A stretch of DNA of 64,000 bases, from positions 248,296-312,295 of the forward strand of contig JBMNHG010000002.1 of the NCBI GenBank assembly GCA_050950285.1, given 5' to 3'. Source of the stretch: Kiritimatiellia bacterium. GTDB taxonomy: Bacteria; Verrucomicrobiota; Kiritimatiellia; RFP12; JBMNHG01. Shown one piece after another: positions 32,976 to 59,198 of this stretch (positions are counted from its first letter, which is position 1; the number at the start of each line of letters is the position of its first letter). The notes under the pieces were generated by a model that saw nothing but the letters and a program-made list of their open reading frames with translations, ran no database searches and was not told the DNA's origin. A program made the position numbers and the translations under genes.

Positions 32976-34964
32976 TCAGGATGCATGGAAGGTGCGGGCG
33001 CGGATCTTGGCGCGGACTTCATCGTCGAGGCGATGGTAGTATTCGGCGTAGCCGCCCACGCGCACGATGAGGTTCCGGTGGCCGTCGAGGTTCTTCTCCG
33101 CCTCTTCCAGCATGTCGCGCGACAGGCAGGTGATTTGCACCTGCATGCCCCCAAGCGAGAAGAACCCTTCGATGAGCGCCCGCAACGCGGGTTTCCCGAA
33201 GCCCGGCTGGAGGGTGAGGTTCAGCACGGGAATCCCGAGGGCGGCGGGGAGGTCCATCGCCGCCACGCTCTTCAGCAGCGCCGTCGGCCCGAGAGTGTCT
33301 TTCCCGTAGATCGCGCAAAGGGAATCGGCGAGCGCCTCCCCCGCCGCACGACCGTCCGGCGTGGCGCCCACGTAGCGGCCGCCCTGGCCGTAGGAGACGA
33401 AGAGGATCGACGCAGGCAGGAATCCAAGGCCGAAATGGGGTTTGCGGTTCCGAAGAAAGCCGAATATCTCGCGGGTGAAATCCCCGGCCAGCGCGTCGGC
33501 TTGCGGATGATTGATGCCGTGGCGCACGGGACAGGCCTTCATGCGGCGCAGGAAATCGGGATCGGAGGCCGCGAGTTTCGCGAGGAAGTCCTCTTTGGTG
33601 TAGTCTTGCCTCCGGTAGACGTGCTCCCGAAGCGCCAGCAGCGAGTCGACGGCGTTCACGATGCCGGCGAAACTGACGAGGCTCCAGGCGTAGCGGGCGC
33701 CGCCGTCGTTGAAGTCGCGTTCGTTGGCGATGCAGTCGTCCACGAGCAGCGTACGCATCGGGAGCGGGTTCCAGCGGGCGCGCTCGGCCTGCGAATTCGC
33801 GATTTCGCGCGTTACCGTGTCCACGGCGCCGGCGATGTCCGCCAGGTACGCGCGGTAGAAGTCGTCGAAGGTGGCGCATTCGGCCAGGCGGGCCTGGAGG
33901 GCCTTTTCGAAGAGGAAGGGCAGGTTGATGCCGGCATCGAGCGAGCCCACGTTCGAAAGCCCGGCGAGCATCGTCTCGGTGCAGCCGCCGCCGCAGAACC
34001 GCGACACGTCTTCGCGGCGGATTTCGGGGAAGCGGGCGAGGAGGCCGTCCACGATTCGCCGGCGGTTGTAGAACGAGGGCTGGGCCCCGCCGGCGAGGAT
34101 GCAGTCGAGCGCCTCGTCCCAGATTTCGTCGGAGGTGTCGTCGCCCACGAGCAGCTCGATCATCGGACGGCGAAGGCCCCGGACGGCGCGCAGGCAGGGA
34201 AGGACGAGCGGGTTGGGGGTCATCCCCACGGCCATCGAATAGGCGTCCGTGGCATCGACGATCTTGAACCATTCGCGGAGAACCGGCGTGGGGTCGCCGT
34301 CGCGTTCCGCGTCGTAGTAAGGGGCCAGGCCGTCGGCGAGGCATCCTTCGTTGTCGCAGCCGTCGAGGAAGAAGACGAAGTTCCAGCAAACCATGGCCTC
34401 GTAGAAATCGCGTGCCGGGGCGAAGGGGACGCGTTCGAGGGCCGCGACAAGGCGGGGAGCGGCGTTTTCGGAGCGGAGCTTGGCCAGAAGGCGCCCATGC
34501 CAGGCGCGGATGCCGGCCAGCAGGTCGAGAAGGCCGTCCCGCAGGCCGTCGTCTTCCATGGCCTTGACGCGCGCTTCGTAGCCGTCGAGCCCTTCGGCGA
34601 GCACCCGCTCGTAGTTCGGCGTGGAGTGGGTGTACATGTTGCCCGCGACGGAATGCTGCCATGGCACGGTGGACTGGTAGCGGAAGAAATCCGATTTCGC
34701 GAAGGTGTCCTTGAGCGCCGGATCGGCGGCTTCGAGACGTTCCCAGTCGACCGCGATCTGCAGGTACGTCGAACGCACCGCCACGTCGCAGGGAAGCGGC
34801 GAGCAGGGATAGAAGAGGCCGCCGCCATACGGGGGAAGCGGCGTCTGCTCGTAGTATCGGCGGAGGGCCCGGGCCTTGCGCGTGAAGAGGGGGCGCGTTT
34901 CGTCCTCGTAGAGTCCCGCGGCGTAGTATTCGCCGATACGGCGGAATCGTTCGGAAAGAGTCAT
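32976..34964 (-). CDS. Glycyl radical enzyme (PFL-like superfamily, GCxE-type active site)
   Basis: C-terminal glycine-radical motif RVGGYAEYYHRLDDE. Active-site loop ..RFCGGGCTETMLAG (Cys plus Glu as in eliminase-type GREs). 663 aa from the MTLSERF start, which is short for the family. Confidence 0.8.
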   Translation of the reverse strand: MTLSERFRRIGEYYAAGLYEDETRPLFTRKARALRRYYEQTPLPPYGGGLFYPCSPLPCDVAVRSTYLQIAVDWERLEAADPALKDTFAKSDFFRYQSTVPWQHSVAGNMYTHSTPNYERVLAEGLDGYEARVKAMEDDGLRDGLLDLLAGIRAWHGRLLAKLRSENAAPRLVAALERVPFAPARDFYEAMVCWNFVFFLDGCDNEGCLADGLAPYYDAERDGDPTPVLREWFKIVDATDAYSMAVGMTPNPLVLPCLRAVRGLRRPMIELLVGDDTSDEIWDEALDCILAGGAQPSFYNRRRIVDGLLARFPEIRREDVSRFCGGGCTETMLAGLSNVGSLDAGINLPFLFEKALQARLAECATFDDFYRAYLADIAGAVDTVTREIANSQAERARWNPLPMRTLLVDDCIANERDFNDGGARYAWSLVSFAGIVNAVDSLLALREHVYRRQDYTKEDFLAKLAASDPDFLRRMKACPVRHGINHPQADALAGDFTREIFGFLRNRKPHFGLGFLPASILFVSYGQGGRYVGATPDGRAAGEALADSLCAIYGKDTLGPTALLKSVAAMDLPAALGIPVLNLTLQPGFGKPALRALIEGFFSLGGMQVQITCLSRDMLEEAEKNLDGHRNLIVRVGGYAEYYHRLDDEVRAKIRARTFHAS

Positions 34965-35058
34965 GGCGGAAGAATACCACATTCCCCCGATCGGGCGCAC
35001 CCTCCGATTGGGACACCCGGTTGAACCGGCCGCCCGGCAAACACCTTGCCATTCGTTG

Positions 35059-37698
35059 TCAGTATCGTGGCCTGCCACGGGGAGGTTGACGTGAAGAAGG
35101 CACATCCCAATTGCGGCACTTCCTGCCGTCGGCATCGAAAAAACGGATGCGATGCAGGTTCGTGTCCAGAAACTTCAGCCGGAGGGAAAACCGCCGGCCT
35201 GCGCCGCATTCGCCGCCAATCGCTGGCAATGGGATCCGGACTTTATAGGTTGGCTTCCTGCAAAACTGGTAATCGTTCAGATCCATTCGCGCTGCCAATG
35301 AGGTCATGTCCGACTCTGCAATGCGGGTCCCGTTCAAGTCAAGTACCTCGACACGCGGGAACATGCCTGAAAGTCGAGCTTGCGAAAGCGCATTGTTGAC
35401 GCTGAAGAGCAGTGAACGTGAATCCTCGTCATGTGCAATGTTCCAAACCACCAGTCCGTTCTTGAAATGGAGCGACGGCGTGGCGACCGGATGGAACGAG
35501 GACAAGGAGAAATCCGTTCCGGAAACGGAGCGGAAGCGCAGCCTGTTGGGGATGTGATGGAAGTTGCAGTTGGCAGGGATGGGGCACCGAATGCCATGCC
35601 GCGCGTCCTCGAAGGAAAAAAGGCCAAGCGGGAATCCATCCAAGTCAACCTCGACAAAATCATCCGCAGGTTCATCCCCCGGCGGGCAATCGATCGAGAA
35701 ATCAATGACATTGTACCGACGGAGGATGTCGGGCCTGATGAACCGGAAGATTTCGTTCCGGGACACTTGCGGCGTGATGATCTGGTTGACGATGTAGCGA
35801 TCGTCTTCGACAATCGTCGAAAGATTGTCTTGGGAGAATCTCGTGCCATTCCATGGGGAGTCTGGCGATAGAAACGCCTTGTCGACGACAACCAGTGGGG
35901 TTGGCCAGACCATTTGCAGCAAATCGATGCCTTCGAGCCGGGATTTCTCATCGTCCGCATTGACTTTCGCACATATTTTTCGCGAAAGGTCCGGGAACGT
36001 ACCCTCCCAGGCGAAAACAAAGAAGTTTTTGTTTCGGGCAAGCTGCAGCATTTCACGCGAGGTGATTTCTCGATCGTGCATCGGGAAAACCGCGAGAACA
36101 GGCGGTTCGGGAAGGTTGTCGATATATTGGACCGAGGGCAGTCTGTCGATCGGCTCGAACCGGTGCAGGCCCGCACGGGCGGGGGTATGGGTGTCCGGCA
36201 GGCAGACTGATTCCACCCACACCGAGGCGAAAGCCAAGACAGGAATCGCCAGGGAGGCGAATCCCCGCAACTGCCTGTTGCGGACGCGACGGACAGAATC
36301 GAGCCATGAATCGAGTCCTCGTGCCGCCGCTACGACCATGAACAGCAGGACAAAGAACGAGAATCTCGATACAACGCGGAAGCCCCATAGCGCATGGCAT
36401 TGCCGATAGAGAGTCCAGTATATCCGGTTTTGAGCGACCGTGCCGATCGATCCGACGCAGAAACTGGGGCCAAACGAAAAAACCATGGCAAATAGGGATG
36501 CGCATCCCAGCCCCTTGAAAAAACAATCGTTCATGTCGCATCCGCGAACATCGAAGACAAAGACAAAGGCGACCGCCGCCGCGCACGCAATGTAGACGGA
36601 ACATACGAATGCGTTGATGCCAAAGGGCGTTTCCCCCGCGACATTTGCAGATACGCCTTGAACCAGAAACGCACACAAGGCCACGAGCAGGGTCCACAGG
36701 ATTACGTTCTGGGCCACGAATCGCTTGCCCGATCCGCGAACGGATGCGACGTGTGAACGAATCAACTCCCACGATGCCAGCAGGAAGACCGCGAGGGTGG
36801 GATATGCGCATGCTTCGTTTTGGATCGTCTTGTCGAATGGCGGCCATTTTACCCGATAGGGCGGCACGATATAGCTGGCTGGTTCCAGCACATGCCGTTT
36901 GACTTCCCCGATTTTCCGGACGAGCATGTTGCTGTCAAGGACCCTCGCATAGGGCCAGAGGAAATACCCTGCCAGAAGGATTCCCAGTACGCCTGCAACC
37001 GCGAGCGGGAGCCAGAACTTCCCGAACGATGGAAGTAATTCCTTCCAGGATTTGCGGAACAAGGGAATAACGATGAATGGCAGGAGGAACAACAGGAATA
37101 CCGCATGGTACAGCTCGGACATTGCCTGCAGCCACAGCGACAGGCAGCACGACACCGCATGGCCAATGCTTGGCCGCTTGAAGTAGCGAACCAGAAACAG
37201 CAGGAAGAGCATCACGCCAAAATTCAACTGCATGTTGAATTCGACGATATAGCGCAACTTGTACGGCAGGATCGTAAAGATTGCCGCCAACGTGAAACTC
37301 GCAATGCGCCCGACTCCCAACTCCTTCAGCAGAAGCCACATGCATGTTCCAGACAAGGCCCAGAACACGAGGAAGCAAATATTGTACGAGAGAATTGGGC
37401 CCGCATGGAAGACTCCCGCCAGGAAGGCGGCAAGGAAGGCGGGCGGATAATGCAACCCTTCGAAATAGAATCCCGAAGGATAGGGATAGAACATGTTAGT
37501 ATTGCCGTCAACCGGCAGAAGACGCCCGTGAAGGAGTTCCCGGGCCGTAAAATCCAGGCGCCAGGCATGCAATGGAGGATCCCAGTGGGCAAAGAGGCTG
37601 TCCCTGAAAGTCATGCACCACGGCCACGTCGCAAGGACAATGATGGCCGTCAATTCCAGAGTGACCAGAAGAAAAGGCAATAGGCGTTTCTTCTCCAT
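35059..37698 (-). CDS. 879-aa polytopic membrane protein (possible GT-C-like glycosyltransferase) with large C-terminal soluble domain; low-GC gene
   Basis: More than 12 hydrophobic helices in the first ~500 aa, then a ~370-aa hydrophilic domain. The base composition is clearly AT-richer than the flanks. Confidence 0.5.
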   Translation of the reverse strand: MEKKRLLPFLLVTLELTAIIVLATWPWCMTFRDSLFAHWDPPLHAWRLDFTARELLHGRLLPVDGNTNMFYPYPSGFYFEGLHYPPAFLAAFLAGVFHAGPILSYNICFLVFWALSGTCMWLLLKELGVGRIASFTLAAIFTILPYKLRYIVEFNMQLNFGVMLFLLFLVRYFKRPSIGHAVSCCLSLWLQAMSELYHAVFLLFLLPFIVIPLFRKSWKELLPSFGKFWLPLAVAGVLGILLAGYFLWPYARVLDSNMLVRKIGEVKRHVLEPASYIVPPYRVKWPPFDKTIQNEACAYPTLAVFLLASWELIRSHVASVRGSGKRFVAQNVILWTLLVALCAFLVQGVSANVAGETPFGINAFVCSVYIACAAAVAFVFVFDVRGCDMNDCFFKGLGCASLFAMVFSFGPSFCVGSIGTVAQNRIYWTLYRQCHALWGFRVVSRFSFFVLLFMVVAAARGLDSWLDSVRRVRNRQLRGFASLAIPVLAFASVWVESVCLPDTHTPARAGLHRFEPIDRLPSVQYIDNLPEPPVLAVFPMHDREITSREMLQLARNKNFFVFAWEGTFPDLSRKICAKVNADDEKSRLEGIDLLQMVWPTPLVVVDKAFLSPDSPWNGTRFSQDNLSTIVEDDRYIVNQIITPQVSRNEIFRFIRPDILRRYNVIDFSIDCPPGDEPADDFVEVDLDGFPLGLFSFEDARHGIRCPIPANCNFHHIPNRLRFRSVSGTDFSLSSFHPVATPSLHFKNGLVVWNIAHDEDSRSLLFSVNNALSQARLSGMFPRVEVLDLNGTRIAESDMTSLAARMDLNDYQFCRKPTYKVRIPLPAIGGECGAGRRFSLRLKFLDTNLHRIRFFDADGRKCRNWDVPSSRQPPRGRPRY

Positions 37699-37992: not shown

Positions 37993-39249
37993 CTACGCTG
38001 GGACTGCTGCCTGGGCGCAGCAGTGGTGGAGCTCCCCGTTGACGTACCATATGTACGCCTTCAGGAATGACTCGAGCCCGACTGCGGACCAGAACTGGCC
38101 GCACCGCTTGAAGCGGTTCTGCAACTGCGAACAAAGCGATTCGACCGCGCCGCTTCCGATGGGGCGCCCCAGCCTGCGCTGCCTGAGGTAGTCCATGTGG
38201 TCCTTGTGCTTCATGAAATATTCCGTCTCGCGTTGCACGGCCTTCGCGTCCCAGCATCCATCGCCTTCGTGCGCCTTGAGGATATCGAGTAGCGTCTTCC
38301 CCCCGTACCGCTTGAGCTTCCTGCAACGCTCCGAAAGCCATGCCTTTCGCGCGGGCTCGTCGTCCGGGAAGAGCGCCGCGGCGAGCGCGCCGAGATGCTC
38401 GGTGGCGTGGTAGTAGTCCAGCGTCCCTTCGGCGATGGTGGCGAACCTGTCCTCGAAGATGTTCCAGAGGTAGGTGCCGCCGTCCATGACGATGTAGACG
38501 AACTTCGCCTGCATCATCCCCATCCGCCGCGCCTCGAATTCGACCTTCCGGCCGAAGTCGACCGGATCCGTGCCGGCCGGCATGCAGACTGCGTGCTTGG
38601 TGACAAGCACGCGCCTTCCCCCGCTTGTCTCCGCGGCGTGGGCGAGCTTGAAGATTGTCGCCGACTTCATCTCGCGCCATTCCACGCGCTCGGCGGCTCT
38701 TGGGTTGCGCTTCCCCCATCCCGCCCCGCGGTGCCGGGCGAACCAGCCGTCCATCATGATCACCAGCGTGTCCTCGCTCCCCGCCGCCTCCTCGCAGAGC
38801 CGGGGAAGCTTCCCTTCCTCGCAGCGCCCGGCGATGTCCCTGACGACGTCCATGACCTTGTCGTCGCTGACGGGGCACCCCCATTCCCTGCAGAGCTTCG
38901 AGGCTTTCTCGAACGATCCCGTCTCCATGGCCGTCGCCGCGATCCTCATCTCGAACGCGGGGGAGACGCAGCCGCGCCTGCCGCCGAAAAAGCGCAGGCG
39001 CATCGGCGTCTCGTACCGACCGGACGACCGGCAGAGCCCGTTCTTCACTTTCAGTTCAACCGGCCCGAACCCGGTCGCGACCCTCATGCCGATCGTCCTG
39101 GTCTTGACGAGCGGCTTCCCGTCGCTTCCCTCGGAGGGGGTGCTCTCCGCGAGCCTCTGCAGGTAGTCTTCGTACTCCCTGCGGGCCAGTTCCATGTGTT
39201 TGCGCTGGATTGCCTTTTCGGCTTCGATCAGGTTTTTGCAGGTTTCCAT
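37993..39249 (-). CDS. Transposase, ISKra4-family-like
   Basis: 418 aa with a characteristic ..LDYYHATEHLGA.. region and an RNaseH-like DDE core. Lies inside the IR-bounded element. Confidence 0.7.
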   Translation of the reverse strand: METCKNLIEAEKAIQRKHMELARREYEDYLQRLAESTPSEGSDGKPLVKTRTIGMRVATGFGPVELKVKNGLCRSSGRYETPMRLRFFGGRRGCVSPAFEMRIAATAMETGSFEKASKLCREWGCPVSDDKVMDVVRDIAGRCEEGKLPRLCEEAAGSEDTLVIMMDGWFARHRGAGWGKRNPRAAERVEWREMKSATIFKLAHAAETSGGRRVLVTKHAVCMPAGTDPVDFGRKVEFEARRMGMMQAKFVYIVMDGGTYLWNIFEDRFATIAEGTLDYYHATEHLGALAAALFPDDEPARKAWLSERCRKLKRYGGKTLLDILKAHEGDGCWDAKAVQRETEYFMKHKDHMDYLRQRRLGRPIGSGAVESLCSQLQNRFKRCGQFWSAVGLESFLKAYIWYVNGELHHCCAQAAVPA

Positions 39250-39259
39250 TGTCTTTCCT

Positions 39260-39315
39260 TCCTTTCGCGCTTGATACTATAGCATTCGAATGCTATAGCA
39301 TCAAGCGCGAAAGGA
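39260..39315. repeat. 56-bp near-perfect palindrome between transposase and accessory ORF
   Basis: tcctttcgcgcttgatactatagcattc|gaatgctatagcatcaagcgcgaaagga, with a single mismatch (a39276/c39299). The right arm contains the AAGGAG Shine-Dalgarno (39311-39316) of the accessory ORF. Confidence 0.7.
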
Positions 39316-39323
39316 GAAACCAG

Positions 39324-39620
39324 ATGGAAAAAGACACCTCAGGCGATGAAGAGAAGATTCGTGCCATCAAAGAGCAGATCGTGGCTCTCGGGCCCATGCG
39401 CCCCGGACGGCTCAGCGTGCAATACCAAAAGCCCAAGGAGAAGGCCGGGCCGTTCTACCAGATCAGCTACACGATCCAGAAGCGAAGCCGCTCGGACTAT
39501 GTACGCGAAGCCGATCTGGAACGTGTGAAGGCAGAACTCGAAAACTACCAGACGTTCAAGCGCCTTTGCGAAGAACTGGTTCTGGCCTCGCTGGCACTGG
39601 CAAAGTCGCGACAACGCTAG
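39324..39620 (+). CDS. IS-borne accessory ORF (99 aa), unknown function
   Basis: Good SD 8 nt upstream. Charged, coiled-coil-like protein (MEKDTSGDEEKIRAIKEQIVALGP...). Inside the IS boundaries. Confidence 0.45.
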   Translation: MEKDTSGDEEKIRAIKEQIVALGPMRPGRLSVQYQKPKEKAGPFYQISYTIQKRSRSDYVREADLERVKAELENYQTFKRLCEELVLASLALAKSRQR

Positions 39621-39800: not shown

Positions 39801-41693
39801 ATGGCGGGTTGTTTCCGAAAGTTGCATACGCTCCGCTCCGCGCGGCTCGCCGCGGTGTCGGCCGGCGCCGGGCTCTCCCCCGGCGGCACGAACACCCTCC
39901 GCCTGCTCCGCGGTTGCTTTTCCGTCAGCCCGCCGCCGCTCGACGGGGCGGACGCCGCGCGGCTTGCCGAGGCGGTCCGGGCCAAGCCCGCCTGTTCCGC
40001 CGCCCTGTGCGGCCTGCTGTCCGGGCGCCGCGAAGGCTGGCTGGCCGAGGACGTCCGGGCGCGGCATCTGCTGGACTCCGGGAAGGCCTCCGAGGCCGCC
40101 GCCGCGTGGGAGGCCATGCTCCGCCGCCGCCGCGGCCCGCCCGACCGCATCGCCTTCGCGCGCTGCGAGGCGCTGGCCGCCTGGAAGCCGGGGAAGGGCA
40201 TCGAGGCGCTGGAGGAGTGGCTGGAGCGCTACAAGGACTCGCCGCTGCGCGAGCGCGCCGCCGCCTGCCACGCCCTGCTGCCGGCCCGCCATGGCGACCC
40301 GGCCGAGGCGGCATCCCGCCTCGGGGCCTTCCTCGGGGAATACCCCGGCAGCCGCTTCGCGCCCGAGGCCCGGCAGGCGCTGGCCAGGGCGCGCGGCGCA
40401 TCGGACCGGCTGGAACAGCTCCGGGCGGCGCAGGCCGCCAAGGAGGAGAGGCGCCGGCGCGACCCGGCGTCGGCCGACCTCGAACGCGCCGAGTCGCTCC
40501 TCTCCCAGGGACGCCACGCCGACGCCGAAAAGGCCTTCCTGTCCTTCCGCGACCGCCGCCGCCATCCGCTGTGGGGGCGCGCCTGGCATGGCCTCGGCAA
40601 AGCCCGCCACGCCCGGGGCGACACGCAGGGCGCTCTCGCCGCCTGGGACGACCTCTGGCGGCGCTCGCTGGCCGACACCAACGTCCTGTGCGCCGCCCGG
40701 GCCCGCCGCGCGGCGGGCGACGCCTGGCTCGAGGATCTCGGCGAGCCGGCCCGCGCCCTGAAGGCCTACGACGAAGCCGCGTCCCGCACCGACTTTTCCG
40801 ACCCCGCCTTCGACCTCAACCGCGGGCTCGCCCTGCTGATGCTCGGGCGCGCCCCGGAGGCCGCGGCCCTCTTCACCCGCCGCCGCGACGCGTCCGCCGG
40901 CGACAAGGCCGAGTTCCTGCGCTGGGACCGCCTCGCGAAGGAGTGCGCCGCCGGACGCCTGGCGCCGCCCCCGCGCGGCCTGCTCCCCGACCAGCGCCGC
41001 GCCCGTACCGACCTGGCGATGGCCGACGCCCTCCTCGCGGCCGGCGAGCCGGCCCGCGCCCTGAGGCTCTACCGCCGCGCGTCCGCCCCCCTGGCGGGCC
41101 ACGAGGGGGCCGACCGGTGCGACCTGGGCATGGCGCTCGCCCTGGCCGCCCTCGGCCGGCCGAAGGAGGCGCTCGCCCTCTACGGGCGTTTCACGGGCGA
41201 ACACGGGCGCAGCCCGCTGGCCGCCGGAGCCCTGCTCCGCGCCGGCACGCTCTGCGCATTGCCCCGCGTGAACGACTTCAAAGGCGCCTGCCAGTGGTTC
41301 GCCCGGGTCGTCGAAAACCACCCCGGCACGCGCGAGGCCGAGGCGGCGGAGTTCTATGCCGCCAAAAGGCTCCACGACCCCTTCGACGACGACCAGCGAA
41401 ACGACCGTCCCCGATTCCCGCATGGCAAGCCCGTCCATCCCGACATCACGCTCTCCCGACATCACGCTCCATTGGGAGGCGGGGAACCCGCTCGCCCTGC
41501 TCGGGGGAACCACGGTTTACACGAACAAAATCGAGATCGACGCCGGGGAGGTCGACTGGCCCCTGGATTACGCCGTCATCCCGCGTCATTCGGCCATTTC
41601 CTTCGCCATCGCCGCCGAGGGCCAGGCCGCCGAGGGCGGCAAGGCGGTGGACATCGTCCACGGGCGCGTCGTCGACGTGGACCTCGACGTTGA
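39801..41693 (+). CDS. TPR-repeat protein; probably the N-terminal part of a single TPR-trunk-toxin gene interrupted by a 16-bp duplication
   Basis: TPR-like helical repeats throughout. The last real residues (..KPVHPDITL) match the N-terminus of module 2 (KPVNPHITLHW), and the tail after nt 41455 is out-of-frame read-through. Removing one 16-bp repeat unit fuses this frame to 41422..43458. Confidence 0.6.
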   Translation: MAGCFRKLHTLRSARLAAVSAGAGLSPGGTNTLRLLRGCFSVSPPPLDGADAARLAEAVRAKPACSAALCGLLSGRREGWLAEDVRARHLLDSGKASEAAAAWEAMLRRRRGPPDRIAFARCEALAAWKPGKGIEALEEWLERYKDSPLRERAAACHALLPARHGDPAEAASRLGAFLGEYPGSRFAPEARQALARARGASDRLEQLRAAQAAKEERRRRDPASADLERAESLLSQGRHADAEKAFLSFRDRRRHPLWGRAWHGLGKARHARGDTQGALAAWDDLWRRSLADTNVLCAARARRAAGDAWLEDLGEPARALKAYDEAASRTDFSDPAFDLNRGLALLMLGRAPEAAALFTRRRDASAGDKAEFLRWDRLAKECAAGRLAPPPRGLLPDQRRARTDLAMADALLAAGEPARALRLYRRASAPLAGHEGADRCDLGMALALAALGRPKEALALYGRFTGEHGRSPLAAGALLRAGTLCALPRVNDFKGACQWFARVVENHPGTREAEAAEFYAAKRLHDPFDDDQRNDRPRFPHGKPVHPDITLSRHHAPLGGGEPARPARGNHGLHEQNRDRRRGGRLAPGLRRHPASFGHFLRHRRRGPGRRGRQGGGHRPRARRRRGPRR

Positions 41694-43458
41694 CGCCAAC
41701 CACGACGGCAAAATTGATGACGCCGACGAGCCCTTGGAGGTGGACCCCGGCGGCTATGTGTGCGTCGGAACCAACAACCTGACGCCGGTCACGCTCAAGT
41801 TGGAGCCCGTCGGCCTGCCCGGCAAACTGACCCTCTCGGCGACGATGGGTGGGGACCGAATCCGCATCTGGAAAGACGCCGGGCGCGCGACCGAGGTGAT
41901 ATTGACCAATGGCTGCGCCCAGGTGGCTCCCGGCACGCTCTACGTCGAGGGGGTCACCAACAGCGCCGCCCTCCGCGACGTGGAACTCCGCCTCGAATAC
42001 GACGAGAACCCGGAGGGCCAGAATAACCGCCTCTTCAAGTGCGAGGACAGGGTGAAGCTGACGGCCGTGAAGGTGGACTTGGATATCGACTCGGACAACA
42101 ACGGAGCCATCGAAGAAGCAGACGAGGCCCAAGAACTTACCGAACCGGGCAAGTTGATCTATCTGAACCATGATGACGACAACAAGAACGACATAGAGGA
42201 CAAGGCCGAGAACACTGCAATTGTCACTGATGAAGATGACCTCCAACCAATCAAGCTTGCATTTTCACCAAACATCGCTGGCGGAAAGATAATCCTTGCT
42301 GCTCCAAGTGGTGGGTCTCGGATTCAAGTTTGGGGAAACTCCACAAAAGGTGTTGCGAGTGAGAAAGTTGACCTGCCGAAGACGTGGACAATAGGCACTG
42401 ACGCTGTCCCTGCAACACTCTATGTCGAGGGCATCGACCCCGGTGCTGCTCAATTGAAATTGGCTTACGAGGTTAACTCGGTCGAAGTTTGCAAGGACGA
42501 GATCAAGTTGGGCATCGTCAAAATTGAGTTCAAGGAACGGGGCGATACAAAATACGGTTATGATAACGGGACCGTTGACAACAACCCTGTTCCCAAATCG
42601 GTTGACACTCCCCCACAGAAGTATGACTGGGTAAACGTTGACAGAGACAACAAGACGACAGATGTGGACGTAGAGATTACTCCGGCGTCGTATGCCAAGT
42701 ACGTTAATTTTATTAGCAGCGATGACGCAAAAACCACATGCAATCCTGTCGCAGCAACTGCAAATCCGCAGAAATTGACCATAACCGGCACAGCCTCGGG
42801 GACATCCCATGTCCAGACGCGACTTGGAACCACAACAGGTGCTAAAGGCACTCGGTTGAATGTGGCCTGTTACAAGCTGGCAGCCCTTAATGTCAATTTC
42901 TATAAGGTAAGTGCCACGGGGCTTGCGCCTGATGGTACCACGGCGGAACAATTCGAAAGTGGCGCGAATGCGTTCCTCAAGCGGGGTGTCAGTGAACTAT
43001 CACTGACCGACAACGGCACCACAATAACTAACTACGATGACAACGCAAATTCTAAACTAGATATCGATGCAACGGCGGGGGATGGCGGAAGTGAATGGGT
43101 CAAGGTGACAGCGGCACTAGGGGCTCCTGTTGGGATGAAACTGCTTCATGTAAAGGCCTTGCGCGTTAACATCGGGGGAACATGGGTCAACGCAACAGGC
43201 TTACGCTATGGTGATTGGACGCTGGTTTCTGACGAGTCAACGAGCAAAGTCAGAACTGTCGCCCATGAGATGCTTCACAAGCTAGGACTGAAAGATACAG
43301 GCCCCAGTGGGAGCAACACTGCAAACATCATGTACTATATGAGCAATGGCACAAAGTACTTTGTGGGGTATTTCAAAGTGGAAGGCGTTCAGACTGGGTC
43401 TGGCACGTCTTACACCCCAAAACAACACGAGCTACAGTGGGAAATGATTTATCGGTGA
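41422..43458 (+). CDS. Polymorphic-toxin-like module 1: conserved trunk + C-terminal HExxH (zincin-like) region
   Basis: Trunk ..GKAVDIVHGRVVDVDLDVDANHDGKIDDADEPLEVDPGG...LTLSATMGGDRIRIWKDAGR..EVILTNGCAQVAPGTLYVEGVTNSAALRDVELRLEYDENP. Reiterated ~100-aa modules. C-terminal ..VAHEMLHKLGL.. (43264-43278). Confidence 0.65.
   Translation: MASPSIPTSRSPDITLHWEAGNPLALLGGTTVYTNKIEIDAGEVDWPLDYAVIPRHSAISFAIAAEGQAAEGGKAVDIVHGRVVDVDLDVDANHDGKIDDADEPLEVDPGGYVCVGTNNLTPVTLKLEPVGLPGKLTLSATMGGDRIRIWKDAGRATEVILTNGCAQVAPGTLYVEGVTNSAALRDVELRLEYDENPEGQNNRLFKCEDRVKLTAVKVDLDIDSDNNGAIEEADEAQELTEPGKLIYLNHDDDNKNDIEDKAENTAIVTDEDDLQPIKLAFSPNIAGGKIILAAPSGGSRIQVWGNSTKGVASEKVDLPKTWTIGTDAVPATLYVEGIDPGAAQLKLAYEVNSVEVCKDEIKLGIVKIEFKERGDTKYGYDNGTVDNNPVPKSVDTPPQKYDWVNVDRDNKTTDVDVEITPASYAKYVNFISSDDAKTTCNPVAATANPQKLTITGTASGTSHVQTRLGTTTGAKGTRLNVACYKLAALNVNFYKVSATGLAPDGTTAEQFESGANAFLKRGVSELSLTDNGTTITNYDDNANSKLDIDATAGDGGSEWVKVTAALGAPVGMKLLHVKALRVNIGGTWVNATGLRYGDWTLVSDESTSKVRTVAHEMLHKLGLKDTGPSGSNTANIMYYMSNGTKYFVGYFKVEGVQTGSGTSYTPKQHELQWEMIYR
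41439..41470 (+). repeat. 16-bp tandem duplication (cccgacatcacgctcY x2) at the TPR/trunk junction
   Basis: Units at 41439-41454 and 41455-41470, with 15/16 identity. Deleting one unit gives an uninterrupted ORF 39801..43458. Confidence 0.7.
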
Positions 43459-43475: not shown

Positions 43476-44417
43476 ATGAGAACGTTCTTGGCATGTTTTA
43501 CTTTCTTCGCGTTCCAGGCCTTGGTGCGCGCAGAACCTGGCACTGTCGCAGAGGTCCTGAATAACCTCCGGAAGGGAGATGCCCGGGGGTTGCGGACTGA
43601 TCAGTACACAAATGCGGCGAGTGCCGTTGCCTTTCTGGAGAACATCGGTGTTCTGGAAGACGAGAAGATCCGACTGAAGGTGGTGCGGTTCTCGGCAACG
43701 CTGATGCGTCGGGCGGCAAGAGCGGGCTCGCAGCAGGACGAACAGAACGTAGAAGCCTTCACTGGCCAGATGGTGAAGATCCTTAAGGCTGATCCATCTA
43801 GGCGTATCCGGGAAGAGGCCGCGAAGAGTCTTCTGGAAATGGTCTCCCCGCGTGTTCTCGATCGCTATCACGCCGTTCTACGTCTTGCGGCCGAGGAAAG
43901 GAAGGACATCGCTACGCTTCTTGTCTGCGCATCACTGCATTCCTGCGATGCAACGTGGTTGGCGGAATTGGTGCGTACAATGAAACCGGAGTCCCGGATG
44001 GAGAAGCGCCAAATCGACAGCATTCTGGCGCGGTGCGGGGATCAGGCTGCAACAGATCGTCTCATTGATGAAGCAGGTCATGCGCAGGGAATGAGCGATG
44101 TTGAGATTGGTGAGTTGGTCGCCGCTTTGGCCTTTGTGCCTTCCGAACGGGTTCAGATGTTTCTTGGACTAGGTCTTCGCTCTGACACTGTTGTTTCACT
44201 ACCCGGGGGAGGCGCGATTCCCTGGCGCAACTGCTGTGCCCGTTCTTTGGTCCGAATGCACAGGCACGACGAGAGTTTTCCTGTAAAGAGGGACGACTAC
44301 ATGTATAGTGACGATGAGCTTGACAGAATCGAACAGTGGAGTGTGGTTACTCTCGGCATTGCCCCCCGTAGTGGAACACGGAGGAGCTTGAAAGTGACAC
44401 CAGGTATTCATCAGTAG
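43476..44417 (+). CDS. Signal-peptide partner protein 1 (candidate immunity; HEAT/armadillo-like repeats)
   Basis: Starts 18 nt after the module 1 stop. Signal peptide (MRTFLACFTFFAFQALVRA), alpha-helical repeat composition, and AT-richer DNA than the core genome. Confidence 0.55.
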   Translation: MRTFLACFTFFAFQALVRAEPGTVAEVLNNLRKGDARGLRTDQYTNAASAVAFLENIGVLEDEKIRLKVVRFSATLMRRAARAGSQQDEQNVEAFTGQMVKILKADPSRRIREEAAKSLLEMVSPRVLDRYHAVLRLAAEERKDIATLLVCASLHSCDATWLAELVRTMKPESRMEKRQIDSILARCGDQAATDRLIDEAGHAQGMSDVEIGELVAALAFVPSERVQMFLGLGLRSDTVVSLPGGGAIPWRNCCARSLVRMHRHDESFPVKRDDYMYSDDELDRIEQWSVVTLGIAPRSGTRRSLKVTPGIHQ

Positions 44418-44531: not shown

Positions 44532-46253
44532 ATGAACATCTGGCACAAAGAATCTGTAAAACCCGTGAATCCGCACATCACGCTCCACTGGGCGGGGGTG
44601 CGCGAACTGTGCCTTCTGCACGGGGACGGGACGTTGTTCCCGAACGGCGGGCAGATCGACTCGCGCGCCGTTCCCTCCTGGCCCCTCCGCTTCCGCGTCG
44701 GGCCGCTCGCGCCGACGACGGAGTTCGTGGTGCGCCTTTTCGGCGAAGCCGACAACGTGACGGGCGAGAAGGCGGTGGACATCGTCCACGGGCGCGTCGT
44801 CGACGTGGACCTCGACGTTGACGCCAACCACGACGGCAAAATTGATGACGCCGACGAGCCTTTGGAGGTGGACCCCGGCGGACTGGCCTGCGTCTGCACG
44901 AACAAACTGACCCCGATCATGCTCACGCTTCAGCCCGCCGGACTGACCGGCAGGCTGACCCTCTCGGCAACGATGGGAGGGGACCGAATCCGCATCTGGA
45001 AAGACGCCGGGCGCATGATCGAGGTGGTATTGACCAATGGCTGCGCCCAGGTGGCTCCCGGCACGCTCTACGTCGAGGGGGTCACCAACAGCGCCGCCCT
45101 CCGCGATGTGGAGCTGCGCCTCGAATACGACGAGAACCCGCCGAACCAAAACAACCCCCTTTTCAAGTGCGAGGACAGGGTGAAGCTGACGGCCGTGAAA
45201 ATAGATTTTGTCACTCCCGCCGGTGATCCGGTAAATGCCGCCGTGCAGTCGGGCGACGGGCAAAACGAATTCACCTACTCGACAGCCACTCCCGGCGTTC
45301 TGACGATGAACCTGAAGGCGCACGTCACACCGAGCGGTATCGCCAACCAGATCAAGGGCCTATGCCTGTTTACGGTTGATATGATCGCCGGTTCCACCTT
45401 GGCTTGGGGCTCGTCGAATCCTAACGGCAAGCCGACAGCGAACGGTGATGACCTGTTGGCGACGGTCACGTTCACCGGTTTGCCCGCGAACAATTCCGAC
45501 TTCGGGGCCAAGAAGGCCGCTATCCACTTCAACGCCAGCAAGCAGGATGAAGCGAACTACGAAGTATTCTTTCCCCGAGATGTGGCGAACAATCCTGGTG
45601 GTTCTGATCCAAATTGGTTCTACTACTGGGGTCAGGTTTATGTGAATGCGAACGTTCAATATGTGGCCGCTGCGGCGGCCGGACGCGTACCTGCCATGAC
45701 AGGCTGGACGTACAACTCTGTACCAAGCAAAACTCGCATTGAAATCGGTAGCGGACATCCCGCAAAATACAAATCCTATGGCATCGGAGAGGAAGCGTCG
45801 GGCATTGATCGCTACATAATGACGGGAATACATGAGGAGAAGCATGTGGCACAGATTGCTGCCGCAGATGCTCTTCTGCCTACCAGCGGTGCCGATTCCT
45901 TTCGCTTCGGTTGGTCATGGAATCAATCCACTCATAATCATTGGACAAAGGGGCCTGATGGGCAATGGGGTGTTGCCGGAGTTGATGATGACGGGAATGG
46001 TGTAGTTGATGACGCAGCTGTGGCACCACCCTTTGAACCTGGGAACGGTGACGACATCAGCCTCGACCGCGCAACATGGCCGTGGTGGCCAAATACGTGG
46101 ACACTGCCCGGCGGAGTTTACGCCACCATCCATCCCATTGAAGGCGAGGCCGTCAAGGCTGCGGATGACGCAATGAATGAAAACGACTATGCGCCCCAAG
46201 ATTGGGGCAAGCCCGGCAAGAACCACAAGACGGTAAACAAGTGGGATGATTGA
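44532..46253 (+). CDS. Polymorphic-toxin-like module 2: same trunk, unrelated C-terminal region with HEEKH
   Basis: Nucleotides 44773-44883 differ from 41640-41750 by 1 nt. The trunk diverges after ..FKCEDRVKLTAVKIDF. C-terminal ..GIHEEKHVAQ.. (45831-45845). Begins only 10 aa before the trunk homology (MNIWHKESVKPVNPHITLHW). Confidence 0.65.
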   Translation: MNIWHKESVKPVNPHITLHWAGVRELCLLHGDGTLFPNGGQIDSRAVPSWPLRFRVGPLAPTTEFVVRLFGEADNVTGEKAVDIVHGRVVDVDLDVDANHDGKIDDADEPLEVDPGGLACVCTNKLTPIMLTLQPAGLTGRLTLSATMGGDRIRIWKDAGRMIEVVLTNGCAQVAPGTLYVEGVTNSAALRDVELRLEYDENPPNQNNPLFKCEDRVKLTAVKIDFVTPAGDPVNAAVQSGDGQNEFTYSTATPGVLTMNLKAHVTPSGIANQIKGLCLFTVDMIAGSTLAWGSSNPNGKPTANGDDLLATVTFTGLPANNSDFGAKKAAIHFNASKQDEANYEVFFPRDVANNPGGSDPNWFYYWGQVYVNANVQYVAAAAAGRVPAMTGWTYNSVPSKTRIEIGSGHPAKYKSYGIGEEASGIDRYIMTGIHEEKHVAQIAAADALLPTSGADSFRFGWSWNQSTHNHWTKGPDGQWGVAGVDDDGNGVVDDAAVAPPFEPGNGDDISLDRATWPWWPNTWTLPGGVYATIHPIEGEAVKAADDAMNENDYAPQDWGKPGKNHKTVNKWDD

Positions 46254-46274: not shown

Positions 46275-46952
46275 ATGAATAATCGATTAGTGACAATGTT
46301 GCAGGCGATTGTGTTGATGGTTATATTGCTAACCACAGGTCGAGTGTTTGCTGGAAATGCCGAAGTGGAAAACATAGACATGGTTGATACGAAACAGTTG
46401 CTTTCAGCGCAGACGATGGAGCGGAGTCAGGCGCTGGACAGGTTGACTGCAAAATATCGCGAGGTCTCGGCGTCGCTCTTAAAGACACTGGAGGAGGCCA
46501 AGACCGAGTTTAGAACGGATCGCCGTTATCATTCGCCTCTTCACTCCGCCATACTGGCAGTCGATGCATGGCAGGTGATTGATGCCGATGCGCTTCTCCT
46601 TTCGATGGTTGACTACGAGTTAGATCCAAGTTCCTTGCCATTGGGAATGGATGTACCAGGCGACTATTTTTATCCCGCAGCCAAGACGTTGGTCCGCTTG
46701 CGCGTGGACATGGCGAAAGTGGAACGAGCGCTTGGAGCCACAGAGGACCCGAAAGCGCTGAGGATATTGACATGGGTGTTACTTGAACGAGGAGAAGACG
46801 TCGAGAAGGCGAAGATGGCTTTAGCCGATGCAAGCGGCAAAAGTCATGGGGCCACGGAAAAGCGGAATATCAGCGAAGCGCTAGAGCTGCTCAACAACCC
46901 TTCGGAGTTGTTGCCGATGCCGTCGAGGGGTGACCATCCTTCATCGAAGTGA
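46275..46952 (+). CDS. Signal-peptide partner protein 2 (candidate immunity)
   Basis: Starts 22 nt after the module 2 stop. N-terminal MNNRLVTMLQAIVLMVILLTTGRVFAG. Low GC, no similarity to partner 1. Confidence 0.55.
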   Translation: MNNRLVTMLQAIVLMVILLTTGRVFAGNAEVENIDMVDTKQLLSAQTMERSQALDRLTAKYREVSASLLKTLEEAKTEFRTDRRYHSPLHSAILAVDAWQVIDADALLLSMVDYELDPSSLPLGMDVPGDYFYPAAKTLVRLRVDMAKVERALGATEDPKALRILTWVLLERGEDVEKAKMALADASGKSHGATEKRNISEALELLNNPSELLPMPSRGDHPSSK

Positions 46953-47186
46953 CTGCTTTACGGCCTACGCACCTGACACGCCGCGTGCTGGAAGAAAGGC
47001 CACGCGGCGCGCCAGGTGCTCCGGCCTTGCTCCGGCGCTATCGCGCTTCCGGGGCACCTCCGCGCTGACGCGCTCCGGTGGTGGACTCGCTCACACGTTG
47101 CCCTTTCCGGCGCACCCCCGTGTTGCCTCCAGGCCGACACCTTGCATACATTGACAAATGGAATGACGGATTGATACGCTGTCCGC

Positions 47187-48941
47187 ATGGAATCAAGCCT
47201 CTGCATGAATGGCGCGAATGAACGGACGGCTTGGGAATATGCCGTGTGTAGCGGCCAAGACAACCACGACGACGAGCCGCCGGAGGAGGATCCCGGCGGC
47301 TACGCCTGCGTCTGCACGAACAAATTGACGCCGCTCAATCTGAAGGTGCAACCAACCGACCTGCCCGGCAAGGTCAGACTCTCGGCGACGGGCGGCCAGC
47401 GCATCAGAGTCTGGGAGAACGCCGGCCGCACCGGCGAGGTGGTATTGACCAATGGCTGCGCCCAAGTGGCGCCCGGCACGCTCTACGTCGAGGGGGTCAC
47501 CAACAGCGCCGCCCTCCGCGACGTGGAGCTGCGCCTCGAATACGACGAGAACCCGCCGGGCCAGAGCAACCCCCTCTTCAAGTGCGAGGACAGGGTGCGG
47601 CTGGTCGTCATAAAAGTGGACTTAGACATTTGGAACGGGGGAGCCGATTTGGACAACGGTGAGGCTGCCGGCCCCCAGGGGGCACAGGTCCCGGACGCCG
47701 ACGAGGAATCCGTCGGAGCATACATCCTCGTCAACTGGGATGATGACGACGGTGACGGCAAAATCAATGGCACCGGAAGTGGCTGGATATCCTTTCCAGT
47801 GCCAGATCTCGACGAATCAACGGCCATTACCGACGAGGATAATCTAGCGCAGTTGAAACTCAATCTTACGCCGTTACTTGATCTTGGAACGGTTGAACTG
47901 GAAGTGAGTGGTACCGATGCGGGCAAGATCAAGCTCTGGACCGAGTCAACCAAAGGAACGGTGGTCACACTCACATCCAACAAGAAGACATGGAACCTAT
48001 CAAACCCGACGCAGAAGAGCGAGTTTCAGAACTTAATGGCCAACAGCCTGTGGATCGAGGGAGTTGACGCGGGATCGGGTGAACGGGCTGCAACCTTTAC
48101 ATTGTGTTTCAAGGACAGTGGTGGAACTGAAATCTGCAATGACGTTAACAAGGCAACGTTGGTGATGCTGAATCTTGCGAACGTCGCTGGTAGAGAGGTT
48201 GACAATGATGCTCTTGCGGAGAGAGGGCATACGGCAGTAGTCGGTCGCTATGATGGCAGCTGCACCAAGGCCGATTTGCTCAATGCCGCGCACTATACAC
48301 TCTATGAGGCAGATGGGGGTGGAGATTGGGCCGGCACAGAACCAGGACCACGTGAAGCCCTTCTTACTCATGTTACGGCCAGACCAGGCCGCGAGTTTTT
48401 TGGTTCATTGTCACCCTTCTTGACGTCGTACTACAACAGCTCGTCAATGCCTAACACAGCGCAGGGTTACAGAACTCGTTTGAAGATATTGCTGGTGGCC
48501 AGGCGCTTGATTGATAACACCGCCAGCATAGGATATACAAAGTTCAACGCTGTCCTACCCGGAAACTGGAACGGCAATTTGGGCACGATTACAGATCTCC
48601 GATGCGACGGGTTCGTCGAAGTCTGCTATGAGTGGTCGGGCGTCAATTCGTGGGGAAGGATCGCAGGAGGTGGAGCCCGGTACAGCATCCTCGTTGCAGG
48701 GAATCAAGATGACCATAATGAATGGGTATGGGGAGACGTCCCGCAAGATGGAGCGAGTGACTTCTGGGCATGGCTGATGCCGATAACACAGATCGGATAT
48801 GCCGACACCTATATTGACAGCCATTATCCCCCATACACCAACGGTGACTTCGACTATACGGCGAACAATTTTGAAGGGACTTTCTGGGAGAGTGCCTTTT
48901 CCTCTCAACAACTCGTCATGCCAACGCTTTCAAATCCGTGA
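47187..48941 (+). CDS. Polymorphic-toxin-like module 3: 5'-truncated trunk + third unrelated C-terminal region
   Basis: Trunk homology starts abruptly at ..DNHDDEPPEEDPGGYACVCTNKLTP (the ~80 aa found in modules 1/2 are missing). ..VVLTNGCAQVAPGTLYVEGVTNSAALRDVELRLEYDENPP is identical to copy 2 at the protein level. The C-terminal half is unique with no HExxH. Confidence 0.6.
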   Translation: MESSLCMNGANERTAWEYAVCSGQDNHDDEPPEEDPGGYACVCTNKLTPLNLKVQPTDLPGKVRLSATGGQRIRVWENAGRTGEVVLTNGCAQVAPGTLYVEGVTNSAALRDVELRLEYDENPPGQSNPLFKCEDRVRLVVIKVDLDIWNGGADLDNGEAAGPQGAQVPDADEESVGAYILVNWDDDDGDGKINGTGSGWISFPVPDLDESTAITDEDNLAQLKLNLTPLLDLGTVELEVSGTDAGKIKLWTESTKGTVVTLTSNKKTWNLSNPTQKSEFQNLMANSLWIEGVDAGSGERAATFTLCFKDSGGTEICNDVNKATLVMLNLANVAGREVDNDALAERGHTAVVGRYDGSCTKADLLNAAHYTLYEADGGGDWAGTEPGPREALLTHVTARPGREFFGSLSPFLTSYYNSSSMPNTAQGYRTRLKILLVARRLIDNTASIGYTKFNAVLPGNWNGNLGTITDLRCDGFVEVCYEWSGVNSWGRIAGGGARYSILVAGNQDDHNEWVWGDVPQDGASDFWAWLMPITQIGYADTYIDSHYPPYTNGDFDYTANNFEGTFWESAFSSQQLVMPTLSNP

Positions 48942-52562: not shown

Positions 52563-52778
52563 GGAATCCCTTTCATGCGGGAAAACCGCAGAAAAAATAT
52601 CGAACAAAAAGATTACGCGCACGCCACCCGCAAAGCAAATCAAATCAAAAGAGGCTCTTGCAAAACCGCGACCCGGCCGGACGACACAGAGGTCGTCCCT
52701 CCATCCGGCCCGCCGGGGACGGCGGTCCCCAGGCAGGGCGTCCCTCCCGATCCGAGGAGCGGCGTGTCCGGACGGCCC

Positions 52779-59045: not shown

Positions 59046-59198
59046 GGTGGTATCGTACCCCATTCCCGCAATGCACCGCAATCCGATAATTGGCCTGTAC
59101 GGTTCACGGGATGGAACCCTGCTTGCAAGGCGGGAAATCCAGGGCCATCACACGACATTGGTTTGACACCCGGAAGAGCATGGGGTACCTTTCCGCCC

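Follow-up and report, generated by a model that had tools for sequence, protein, structure and literature searches.

Tandem PAD_M-like modules in the common stem of a putative toxin-like cassette array of a Kiritimatiellia bacterium

Three tandem genes and the block that they have in common

The stretch of DNA analysed here (64,000 nucleotides, hereafter the window) belongs to contig JBMNHG010000002.1 of a Kiritimatiellia bacterium and contains three tandem open reading frames (ORFs) on its plus strand, which we call W1, W2 and W3. Each is directly followed by a smaller ORF (43437/43476-44417, 46275-46952 and 48938/48959-49735, respectively), and these downstream partner genes are called I1, I2 and I3. 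Our subject is the interval 41636-42075, a block common to the three W ORFs (84-100% DNA identity among them) that corresponds to one copy of a protein module repeated along their trunk. The features of the locus are listed below, with E values from profile hidden Markov models (HMMs) and predicted local distance difference test (pLDDT) scores from AlphaFold2 (AF2) models; Ig stands for immunoglobulin, aa for amino acids and nt for nucleotides, and PAD_M is the calcium-binding Ig-like domain in the middle of protein-arginine deiminases (PADI1-4, PADI6 and the bacterial PADs).

37993-39249, minus strand: ISKra4-type transposase, left flank of the locus (NCBIfam NF033572, E 2.8e-45, below the curated cut-off; Pfam UPF0236)
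39801-41453, plus strand: TPR region, N-terminal part of the ancestral full-length first gene (Pfam TPR_16, E 1.6e-15; YbgF/BamD-like TPR matches in NCBIfam)
41356-43458, plus strand: W1 ORF, 700 aa
41438-41469, plus strand: 16-nt tandem duplication (two copies of cccgacatcacgctcN), read directly in the DNA
41461-41664, plus strand: beta-rich trunk segment preceding the modules (W1 aa 36-103; AF2 pLDDT 48-76), in common with W2 at the protein level only
41665-42078, plus strand: W1 module A, a short-form PAD_M-like Ig module (HMM E 2.8e-52; pLDDT 93-98)
42061-42531, plus strand: W1 module B, a long-form PAD_M-like module (HMM E 1.1e-59) with a Ca6-type loop and an NHDDD...DEDDL cluster resembling Ca3-5
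42532-42915, plus strand: beta-rich linker from W1 module B to head 1, without a family match, conserved together with the head in the related proteins P0011, P0009 and P0025
42916-43458, plus strand: head 1, a metzincin-like zinc metallopeptidase domain (W1 aa 521-700; HEMLHKLGLKD ... NIMYY)
43476-44417, plus strand: I1, a predicted exported, mostly helical protein, candidate immunity protein or inhibitor for head 1 (signal-peptide-like N-terminus MRTFLACFTFFAFQALVRA)
44532-46253, plus strand: W2 ORF, 573 aa
44565-46253, plus strand: W2 cassette from its GTG start, with the pre-module segment, module A (44793-45209) and head 2 (45210-46253), which has a conserved HExxH
46275-46952, plus strand: I2, the predicted exported protein after head 2 (signal-peptide-like N-terminus MNNRLVTMLQAIVLMVILLTTGRVFA)
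47130-47186, plus strand: W3 leader remnant, the last part of a different leader of ~60 aa, with a TGA inside (tblastn against P0032)
47187-48941, plus strand: W3 ORF (584 aa) and cassette, with a 5'-truncated module A (47253-47624), a long-form module B (47607-48176) and head 3 (48177-48941), from HMM matches
48959-49735, plus strand: I3, a predicted exported protein, candidate immunity protein for head 3 (signal-peptide-like N-terminus MRKTLLLLCASLAFSLVGLA)
49921-50997, plus strand: IS1634-type transposase (partial), right flank (NCBIfam NF033559, E 7.5e-35, 120.9 bits, cut-off 100)

W1 constitutes the 3' portion of a longer gene that includes the TPR region and whose frame is broken by the 16-nt duplication, which had gone unnoticed in the first-pass annotation of this DNA. 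With the duplication left out, the TPR ORF reads ...GKPVHPDITLHWEAGNP straight into W1, and the homologues P0003, P0006 and P0018 read uninterrupted in the same way. Two related contigs, L001 and L004, lack the duplication and align to the window with 17-19 nt less across this point; the duplication may be a genuine mutation that inactivates the gene, a switch that can revert, or an artefact of the assembly. The TPR-coding segment also has the highest GC content of the window (0.78). The L001 and L004 alleles, otherwise 86-99% identical, are devoid of the TPR segment 39855-41358, the first 18 codons of the gene being joined directly to ...RLHDPFDDDQRN, and the more distant P0006 keeps the TPR region before its trunk. 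Read from its GTG start, W2 is identical at 561 of 562 positions (99%) to P0004 (ACOX5G_01370), an NCBI protein from a Kiritimatiellia metagenome-assembled genome (MAG), the sole difference being the GTG start codon itself, V in the window reading and M in P0004.

The repeated module, its fold and its acidic loops

The peptides quoted for the trunk in the first-pass annotation were all found in the sequence, namely DVDLDVDANHDGKIDDADEP at W1 aa 107-126 (41674-41733), with a second occurrence in W2 (44802-44861), DLDIDSDNNGAIEEADE at W1 aa 241-257 (42076-42126) and DGDGKINGTGSG at W3 aa 188-199 (47748-47783), and LTLSATMGGDRIRIW and TLYVEG are likewise present. An independent repeat search matched 41634-41933 and 41840-42086 to 44762-45214 at 90% identity, and the distal part of the block to 47266-47629 at 76-84%. 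The module is also reiterated within a single protein, as had been proposed: W1 aa 100-240 align with aa 238-390 of the same protein at 31% identity (E 1.4e-16). An HMM built from the two W1 copies and iterated over relatives recognizes two copies in W1 (aa 104-241 and 236-392), one in W2 (88-226) and two in W3 (aa 23-146, N-terminally truncated, and 141-330). The repeat unit itself is therefore retained, although its length by HMM is ~140-160 aa and not the ~100 aa first given, and its occurrence at least twice per protein applies to W1 and W3 but not to W2, which has a single copy.

When W1-W3 and the partner ORFs were scanned with Pfam and NCBIfam, nothing significant was detected on trunk, heads or partners, and a phmmer search of W1 against PDB sequences returned only noise. 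Structure prediction was more informative. The AF2 model of W1 aa 36-405, based on a 50-sequence alignment, has a mean pLDDT of 81.8, with values of 93-98 over both modules, and displays the Ig-like beta-sandwich fold of the middle or N-terminal half of the PAD enzymes. When it was compared with the PDB using Foldseek, the top 50 matches were all PAD1, 2, 3, 4 or PADI6 (best E 1.5e-11, ~296 aligned columns, 13-18% identity), which points to a family for a trunk first recorded as unassigned. Profile comparison points in the same direction. For a profile of the module made from 27 sequences (A3), the best match among 177,635 PDB sequences is PAD4 (E 0.04), the alignment placing pG..v.lN.DdD...D....enDL on GAILLVN153CD155RD157...D165...D176L, and hhalign of A3 with a PADI2 fragment brings the two acidic loops into register (E 2.3e-4). 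For this region, the sequence of PADI2 was checked in PDB chain 4n2c_A, whose numbering is offset by 21 from the native one; this offset is consistent with the D123N and D177A mutant names in PDB titles. PAD_M (PF08527) is the best structural match of the trunk by two methods.

The trunk module very probably represents a divergent, multi-copy branch of the PAD_M superfamily, because in genuine PADs the last module recognized by our HMM and Pfam PAD_M coincide. This is the case in P0191, P0140 and P0134, where the last module overlaps a PAD_M match above the gathering score (38-82 bits; HMM module 286-446 vs Pfam PAD_M 289-419 in P0191, and 767-853 vs 768-917 in P0140) and the Pfam PAD domain stands beside that module with E values from 1e-45 to 6e-77. 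The upstream modules of these PADs score far better with the module HMM (for example, 4e-36 for P0191 137-278). Against this assignment, Pfam PAD_M itself finds no match on W1-W3 at E <= 1; on two close relatives it gives an E value of 0.0046. Neither a Pfam PAD match nor a pentein catalytic domain with the GEVHCGTN cysteine was detected on W1-W3. Superfamily membership is based on the predicted fold together with transitive profile evidence, and the trunk, formerly unassigned, can be described as a divergent Ig-like domain of PAD_M type.

The calcium sites of the PADs provide a more detailed comparison. Module A contains a Ca6-type loop, D113-x-N115-x-D117-G-K119-x-D121, in which D113, N115, D117, K119 (at a main-chain carbonyl position) and D121 align to PADI2 D123, D125, D127, V129 and E131. 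These five PADI2 residues are said to have been identified by Slade et al. in 2015 as the ligands of calcium site 6. PADI2 D125 and E131 belong to Ca6, and bacterial and fungal PADIs have been reported with D125N and E131D (Cummings et al., PMC8826395), which is exactly the pattern of module A. The B modules of W1 and W3 keep an N-x-D-x-D ... D ... D-L cluster that is the counterpart of PAD sites 3-5, aligned to PAD4 N153-D176 by the profile and to PADI2 by hhalign (the reference cluster residues being PAD4 N153, D155, D157, D165, D168 and D176). Module A is devoid of the entire Ca3-5 insert (~21 residues and longer). The peptide DGDGKINGTGSG, once taken for a recurrence of the DxDxNxDG loop, corresponds rather to this second acidic cluster (NWDDDD...), since it aligns to the Ca3-5 region of PADs. 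The suggestion that the acidic loops bind calcium gains from this residue-for-residue alignment to the experimentally defined Ca6 and Ca3-5 sites of PADI2 and PADI4, and we regard them as credible predicted calcium sites.

A dockerin or thrombospondin (TSP) type-3 nature of the loops, also suggested initially, was rejected on the basis of the fold and of the lack of any Pfam Dockerin or TSP_3 match on the trunk. The likeness persists as far as generic DxDxDG loop chemistry is concerned, but the loop of the window proteins sits at the start of an Ig-like sandwich, whereas dockerins consist of an EF-hand-like helical pair and the TSP repeats form a wire. One relative (P0007) does carry a true bacterial TSP3 repeat, but in N-terminal position and outside the module.

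Mosaic cassettes, variable heads and partner genes

The three-way alignment of the trunk DNA, scored in 30-nt windows, reveals a mosaic. The identity between W1 and W2 is 0.4-0.57 up to ~41630 and 0.97-1.0 over 41659-41748, all three copies are 0.9-1.0 identical from ~41899 to 42048, and identity drops to <= 0.4 after ~42079, at a sharp junction located in the last strand of module A (...DRVKLTAVKVDL), beyond which the second module, the head and the downstream gene are unrelated. The opposite step, from 0.4 to 1.0, occurs at ~41640 for W1 and W2 and at ~41719/47265 for W3. W2 has breakpoints at ~44565 and ~44760, its homology to W1 starting at 'KPV' (~44565) with AT-rich DNA upstream, and the homology of W3 to W1 and W2 starts inside the codons of the Ca6 loop (~47265). 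The proposal that the homology of the third copy begins in the middle of the trunk, as expected from a recombination breakpoint, is well supported by this mapping, with a sharp breakpoint in mid-module where W3 ~47265 corresponds to W1 41719. GC content follows the same division, being 0.63-0.67 in the pre-module segment and module A (0.65 for module A), 0.49-0.56 in module B (0.49), the heads and the partner genes, and 0.66-0.68 in the flanks. The stem blocks with 97-100% identity indicate recent gene conversion, and the stem DNA is, as read from these alignments, the recombination substrate common to the three copies.

W3 also retains traces of a different 5' end. P0032 aa 33-238 match 47130-47741 by tblastn at 69.6% identity, and in the window the leader reads TLTNGMTD*YAVRMESS where P0032 has ...MTDGYAVRMESS, a TGA replacing a Gly codon. 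The complete leader of ~60 aa (M..R.IE[IL]V..LA.GVDPFTGE.FP..SP..QA.T...), on which Pfam gave no match, is found in P0032, P0005, P0021 and P0033, where it meets the trunk at any of three positions; the window keeps only its last ~19 codons.

The trunk leads to three unrelated C-terminal heads in the window: metzincin-like in W1, another HExxH domain in W2 and a Cys/His hydrolase-like domain in W3. The association of the trunk with variable C-termini, already proposed from the window, extends to other genomes, where the 39 regions found after the last module in 54 close relatives fall into 21 BLAST clusters. In head 1, which has no Pfam match, H117, E118, H121, N137 and M139 are invariant in eight homologues that display the pattern H-E-x-x-H ... 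L-x-D/H and N-I/L-M. With respect to the zinc motif HExxHxxGxxH/D the 'G' position is variable, and NIMYY would occupy the place of the Met-turn. The head 1 profile gives weak matches in the PDB (best E 0.0086), nearly all of them metzincins aligned at the zinc motif. Head 2 has the HExxH motif in every listed relative. In head 3, H18, R142, C143, E148, C150 and E152 are invariant in 11 homologues, and His precedes Cys (H18, R142-C143), the order expected of permuted papain-like amidases; one homologue matches a family of such enzymes (Peptidase_C92, PF05708) at a sub-threshold E of 5.3e-4, and the head 3 profile has no match among PDB sequences. The Cys/His hydrolase-like assignment of head 3 is tentative because its AF2 model, from a 10-sequence alignment, has a pLDDT of 34.6, so that it rests on the conserved residues and that one Pfam match. 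A Kiritimatiellia protein annotated as a transposase (P0205, Pfam Y1_Tnp) shows 72% identity to 36% of the head-1 region of W1, suggesting that a head fragment has been fused to an IS200-like gene or included in its gene call.

The translations of I1, I2 and I3 all start with signal-peptide-like sequences, and I2 has no match in Pfam or NCBIfam. Along its whole length, I1 has 41% identity (E 2.7e-74) to the gene that follows the head-1 protein P0011 in a Lentisphaeria MAG (L005_d1), and I3 is 32% identical, also over its full length (E 5e-39), to the gene that follows the head-3 protein P0053 in an unrelated genome of 8.8 Mb (L006_d1), both of these genes likewise encoding signal peptides. By sequence comparison, the partners I1 and I3 co-vary with their heads across distant genomes. 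In the related arrays L001, L004 and L007, a HEAT- or ankyrin-repeat gene comes after each cassette, and both repeat types are listed as immunity proteins by Zhang et al. 2012 (PMC3482391). We also noticed that in P0035 (NCBI ACOX5G_10435) a trunk fragment ending in ...GKAVDIVHGRVV runs in frame into a partner-like protein whose first residues resemble a signal peptide (KCFLFAVCLLAVPAFA...); P0035 looks like a deletion product devoid of modules and head. As for P0053, its head-3 cassette (L006 1-17320, in the 8.8-Mb ENA contig) starts in mid-module without an N-terminal region and lies between two copies of an element encoding a helix-turn-helix protein, a primase-like protein and two tyrosine recombinases; it resembles an orphan cassette carried by, or adjacent to, a mobile element that was duplicated.

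A conserved 5' block with sharp breakpoints, adjoined by promoterless truncated copies, is also what a system of antigenic or phase variation would offer, in which silent 3' cassettes recombine into an expression site so that the exposed domain changes and toxicity is not the selected function; the frameshifting 16-nt tandem duplication could then be a reversible one. We consider this very unlikely, as the variable parts hold the conserved catalytic motifs HExxH and H...RC and as a specific exported partner gene, not required by antigenic variation, travels with each variable part.

The stem/head mosaic, the fall in GC, the co-variation of heads and partners, the HEAT and ankyrin partners and the trunk/partner-like fusion are hallmarks of toxin-immunity cassette exchange. 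From this locus organisation we infer that the trunk is the trunk of a toxin, and a reading of the region as the conserved stem of a polymorphic-toxin-like array of toxin and immunity cassettes appears moderately probable. The conserved N-terminal region with diverse C-termini, the co-varying downstream genes (I1 and I3) and the orphan 5'-truncated cassettes sharing stem DNA are the traits of polymorphic toxins found at this locus. Several results weigh against it. W1, W2 and W3 show no recognizable signal peptide, Pfam and NCBIfam matched no known trafficking domain on them, and no gene of a type V, VI or VII secretion system was found within the window. Heads 1 and 3 occurred only on this stem (8 and 3 matches among 5.8 billion sequences in a word-indexed search) and in that search were never found on RHS, contact-dependent inhibition (CDI) or LXG scaffolds, and the low pLDDT of head 3 adds to these points. 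Furthermore, W1 is frameshifted and the W3 leader carries a stop; therefore, the array may be inactive in this genome. The known delivery domains RHS, filamentous haemagglutinin (FHA), LXG, MafB and PAAR could not be matched in the first-pass annotation, and the Pfam and NCBIfam scans of W1-W3 returned none of them either, nor did the scans of 50 relatives.

Some of these observations would suit ordinary secreted or surface hydrolases serving nutrition or cell-surface remodelling, with Ig-like domains as spacers, downstream proteins that are inhibitors, chaperones or unrelated, and no interbacterial antagonism. Many relatives are indeed very large and combine PKD, FG-GAP, TIG and FlgD-Ig domains with signal peptides in an architecture typical of surface proteins, no delivery system is found nearby, and the heads are not found on known toxin scaffolds. 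Nevertheless, tandem 5'-truncated copies with near-identical stem DNA and unrelated heads, a GC fall at the junction, heads and partners that co-vary across phyla, HEAT/ankyrin partner genes in relatives and an in-frame trunk/partner-like fusion all speak against such an explanation, which we hold to be unlikely.

If the locus is a toxin-immunity array, the first gene, composed of the TPR region, the stem and the metzincin-like head, would be the expressed locus, and W2 and W3 would be 5'-truncated orphan cassettes able to replace its 3' end via homologous recombination in the stem. The heads would act as envelope-directed hydrolases, two of them HExxH peptidases and the third a permuted papain-like amidase or peptidase, neutralised in the periplasm of the producer by the exported partners. 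The PAD_M-like modules may fold outside the cytoplasm and serve there as rigid spacers, stabilised by calcium, on which the head is presented. Export of the family is probably Sec-dependent, because the N-terminus of many relatives is a signal peptide immediately followed by the first module; such signal-peptide-like starts were seen in P0025, P0038, P0047, P0049 and P0051 and, by a crude heuristic, in 62 of 141 distant representatives.

The present state of the array deserves separate consideration, since it may be a decaying relic, a set of pseudogene fragments left between two insertion sequences in this genome. This possibility, compatible with the toxin-immunity reading, is in our view somewhat doubtful. 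The W1 frameshift, the TGA in the W3 leader remnant, the transposases on both flanks, the absence of the W1 protein from the database where that of W2 is present, and broken or fused ORFs in related arrays as well (P0012, P0035 and P0033) would be in line with decay. On the other hand, the reading frames of W2, W3 and the three partners are uninterrupted for 225-584 codons, the near-identity of the stem blocks speaks for recent conversion, and the duplication may have arisen in the assembly or be a switch that can revert. Decay would in any case bear on present activity only and not on the nature of the system.

The surroundings of the array include no tRNA in the window that could serve as an island landmark. 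A near-perfect palindrome of 54 nt, identified by eye (39261-39314; 27-nt arms, one mismatch), sits between the ISKra4-type transposase gene and a 98-codon ORF (39324-39620) without a family match. To the left of this transposase, within the same low-GC island, an ORF of 879 aa (35059-37698, minus strand; GC 0.555) has a hydrophobic N-terminus and no Pfam or NCBIfam match. Beyond the array, an ORF of 2,100 aa (52779-59081, minus strand) carries lamin-tail (LTD), CotH kinase-like, CHB_HEX_C_1 and Fn3-associated domains. Neighbouring genes encode a radical-SAM/BATS protein (51060-52643), which lies on this side of the island, and a glycyl-radical enzyme (32976-35135) across it.

A wider family of module-bearing proteins and its relation to known systems

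When A3 was searched with HMMER against 1.84 billion cluster representatives, 3,936 proteins matched at E <= 1e-3, 1,950 at <= 1e-10 and 317 at <= 1e-30. The matching representatives carry 1-11 modules, reach up to ~3,500 aa and have very diverse tails, which among distant representatives form 43 clusters from 125 sequences. Among the 141 top representatives with the module, seven have a genuine PAD catalytic domain at their C-terminal end (Pfam PAD E 1e-44 to 5e-80), and three of the seven contain the C-terminal GEVHCGTN motif. One secreted bacterial PAD, P0191 (L009, 1-9241), which has a signal peptide and combines two modules with PAD_M and PAD, is encoded in an operon-like row with a TPR protein. 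Its upstream paralogue has only the N-terminal 140 aa in common with it (50% identity), and signal-peptide ORFs come after both P0191 and the paralogue, a layout that resembles the window locus.

These observations provide a fold and likely calcium sites for a domain left without annotation by Pfam and NCBIfam in the ~3,900 protein clusters whose representatives carry it, and they place the bacterial PAD catalytic domain, in secreted proteins, on a multi-copy stem that also carries dozens of unrelated heads. This sharing of a multi-copy stem suggests, though it does not prove, that PAD enzymes arose within such a module-bearing family and leads to a testable proposal for the origin of the non-catalytic, calcium-regulatory half of PADIs. 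We tentatively raise the possibility, speculative at present, that the PAD_M module forms the stem common to a large and so far undescribed family of bacterial secreted proteins with interchangeable C-terminal heads, PAD being just one of these heads, that the citrullinating enzymes began as an effector head in a polymorphic, toxin-like system, and that the N-terminal Ig domains and allosteric calcium sites of animal PADIs are relics of that stem.

With the PADs, the window proteins share a PAD_M-like domain, with a DxDxD/NxDGxxE/D loop aligned to PADI2 Ca6 and, in long-form modules, a cluster aligned to Ca3-5. Unlike PADs, they lack the PAD catalytic domain after the module, the modules of the family come in tandem arrays of 1-11, and there is no counterpart of the catalytic-domain residue that completes Ca4 in PADs. 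Ca-stabilised Ig-like stalks, such as bacterial Ig-like (BIg) domains, the cadherin-like repeats of RTX adhesins and pilin domains, likewise offer tandem beta-sandwich modules with acidic calcium loops in secreted proteins, but their structural scores are clearly below those of the PADs, and the proteins with such stalks are adhesins that have neither partner genes nor enzyme heads that can be exchanged.

The PAD_M superfamily and the logic of polymorphic toxins are each already known. Their combination, with tandem PAD_M-like modules forming the stem of cassette-exchanging secreted proteins in bacteria of the Planctomycetes-Verrucomicrobia-Chlamydiae (PVC) group, was not found in the searched literature, where our search retrieved nothing relevant on PAD or deiminases in polymorphic toxins nor on Kiritimatiellia toxins. 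The stem domain type is outside the catalogue of Zhang et al., in which 'PAD' occurs 0 times (PMC3482391), and, unlike known polymorphic toxins, the window proteins show no VENN, PxxxxDPxGL, HINT or other known pre-toxin junction, no identified secretion marker and no heads common to other toxin scaffolds. They nonetheless have the conserved N-terminus and hypervariable C-terminal enzyme domains of the polymorphic toxins of the Sec and type II secretion class (PMC3482391) and of CDI/Rhs orphan arrays, and TPR repeats are listed among Sec-dependent polymorphic toxins (PMC3482391). As in these systems, a co-varying gene lies immediately downstream, 5'-truncated orphan cassettes have stem DNA in common, and HEAT or ankyrin partners occur in relatives. 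If the toxin-immunity reading holds, the known range of polymorphic toxin-like systems would gain a new type of stem and, within the PVC group, the Kiritimatiellia and Lentisphaeria, a taxonomic range that is based on a few named MAG proteins, and the heads and their partners would be candidates for new envelope-directed enzymes and the inhibitors that restrain them.

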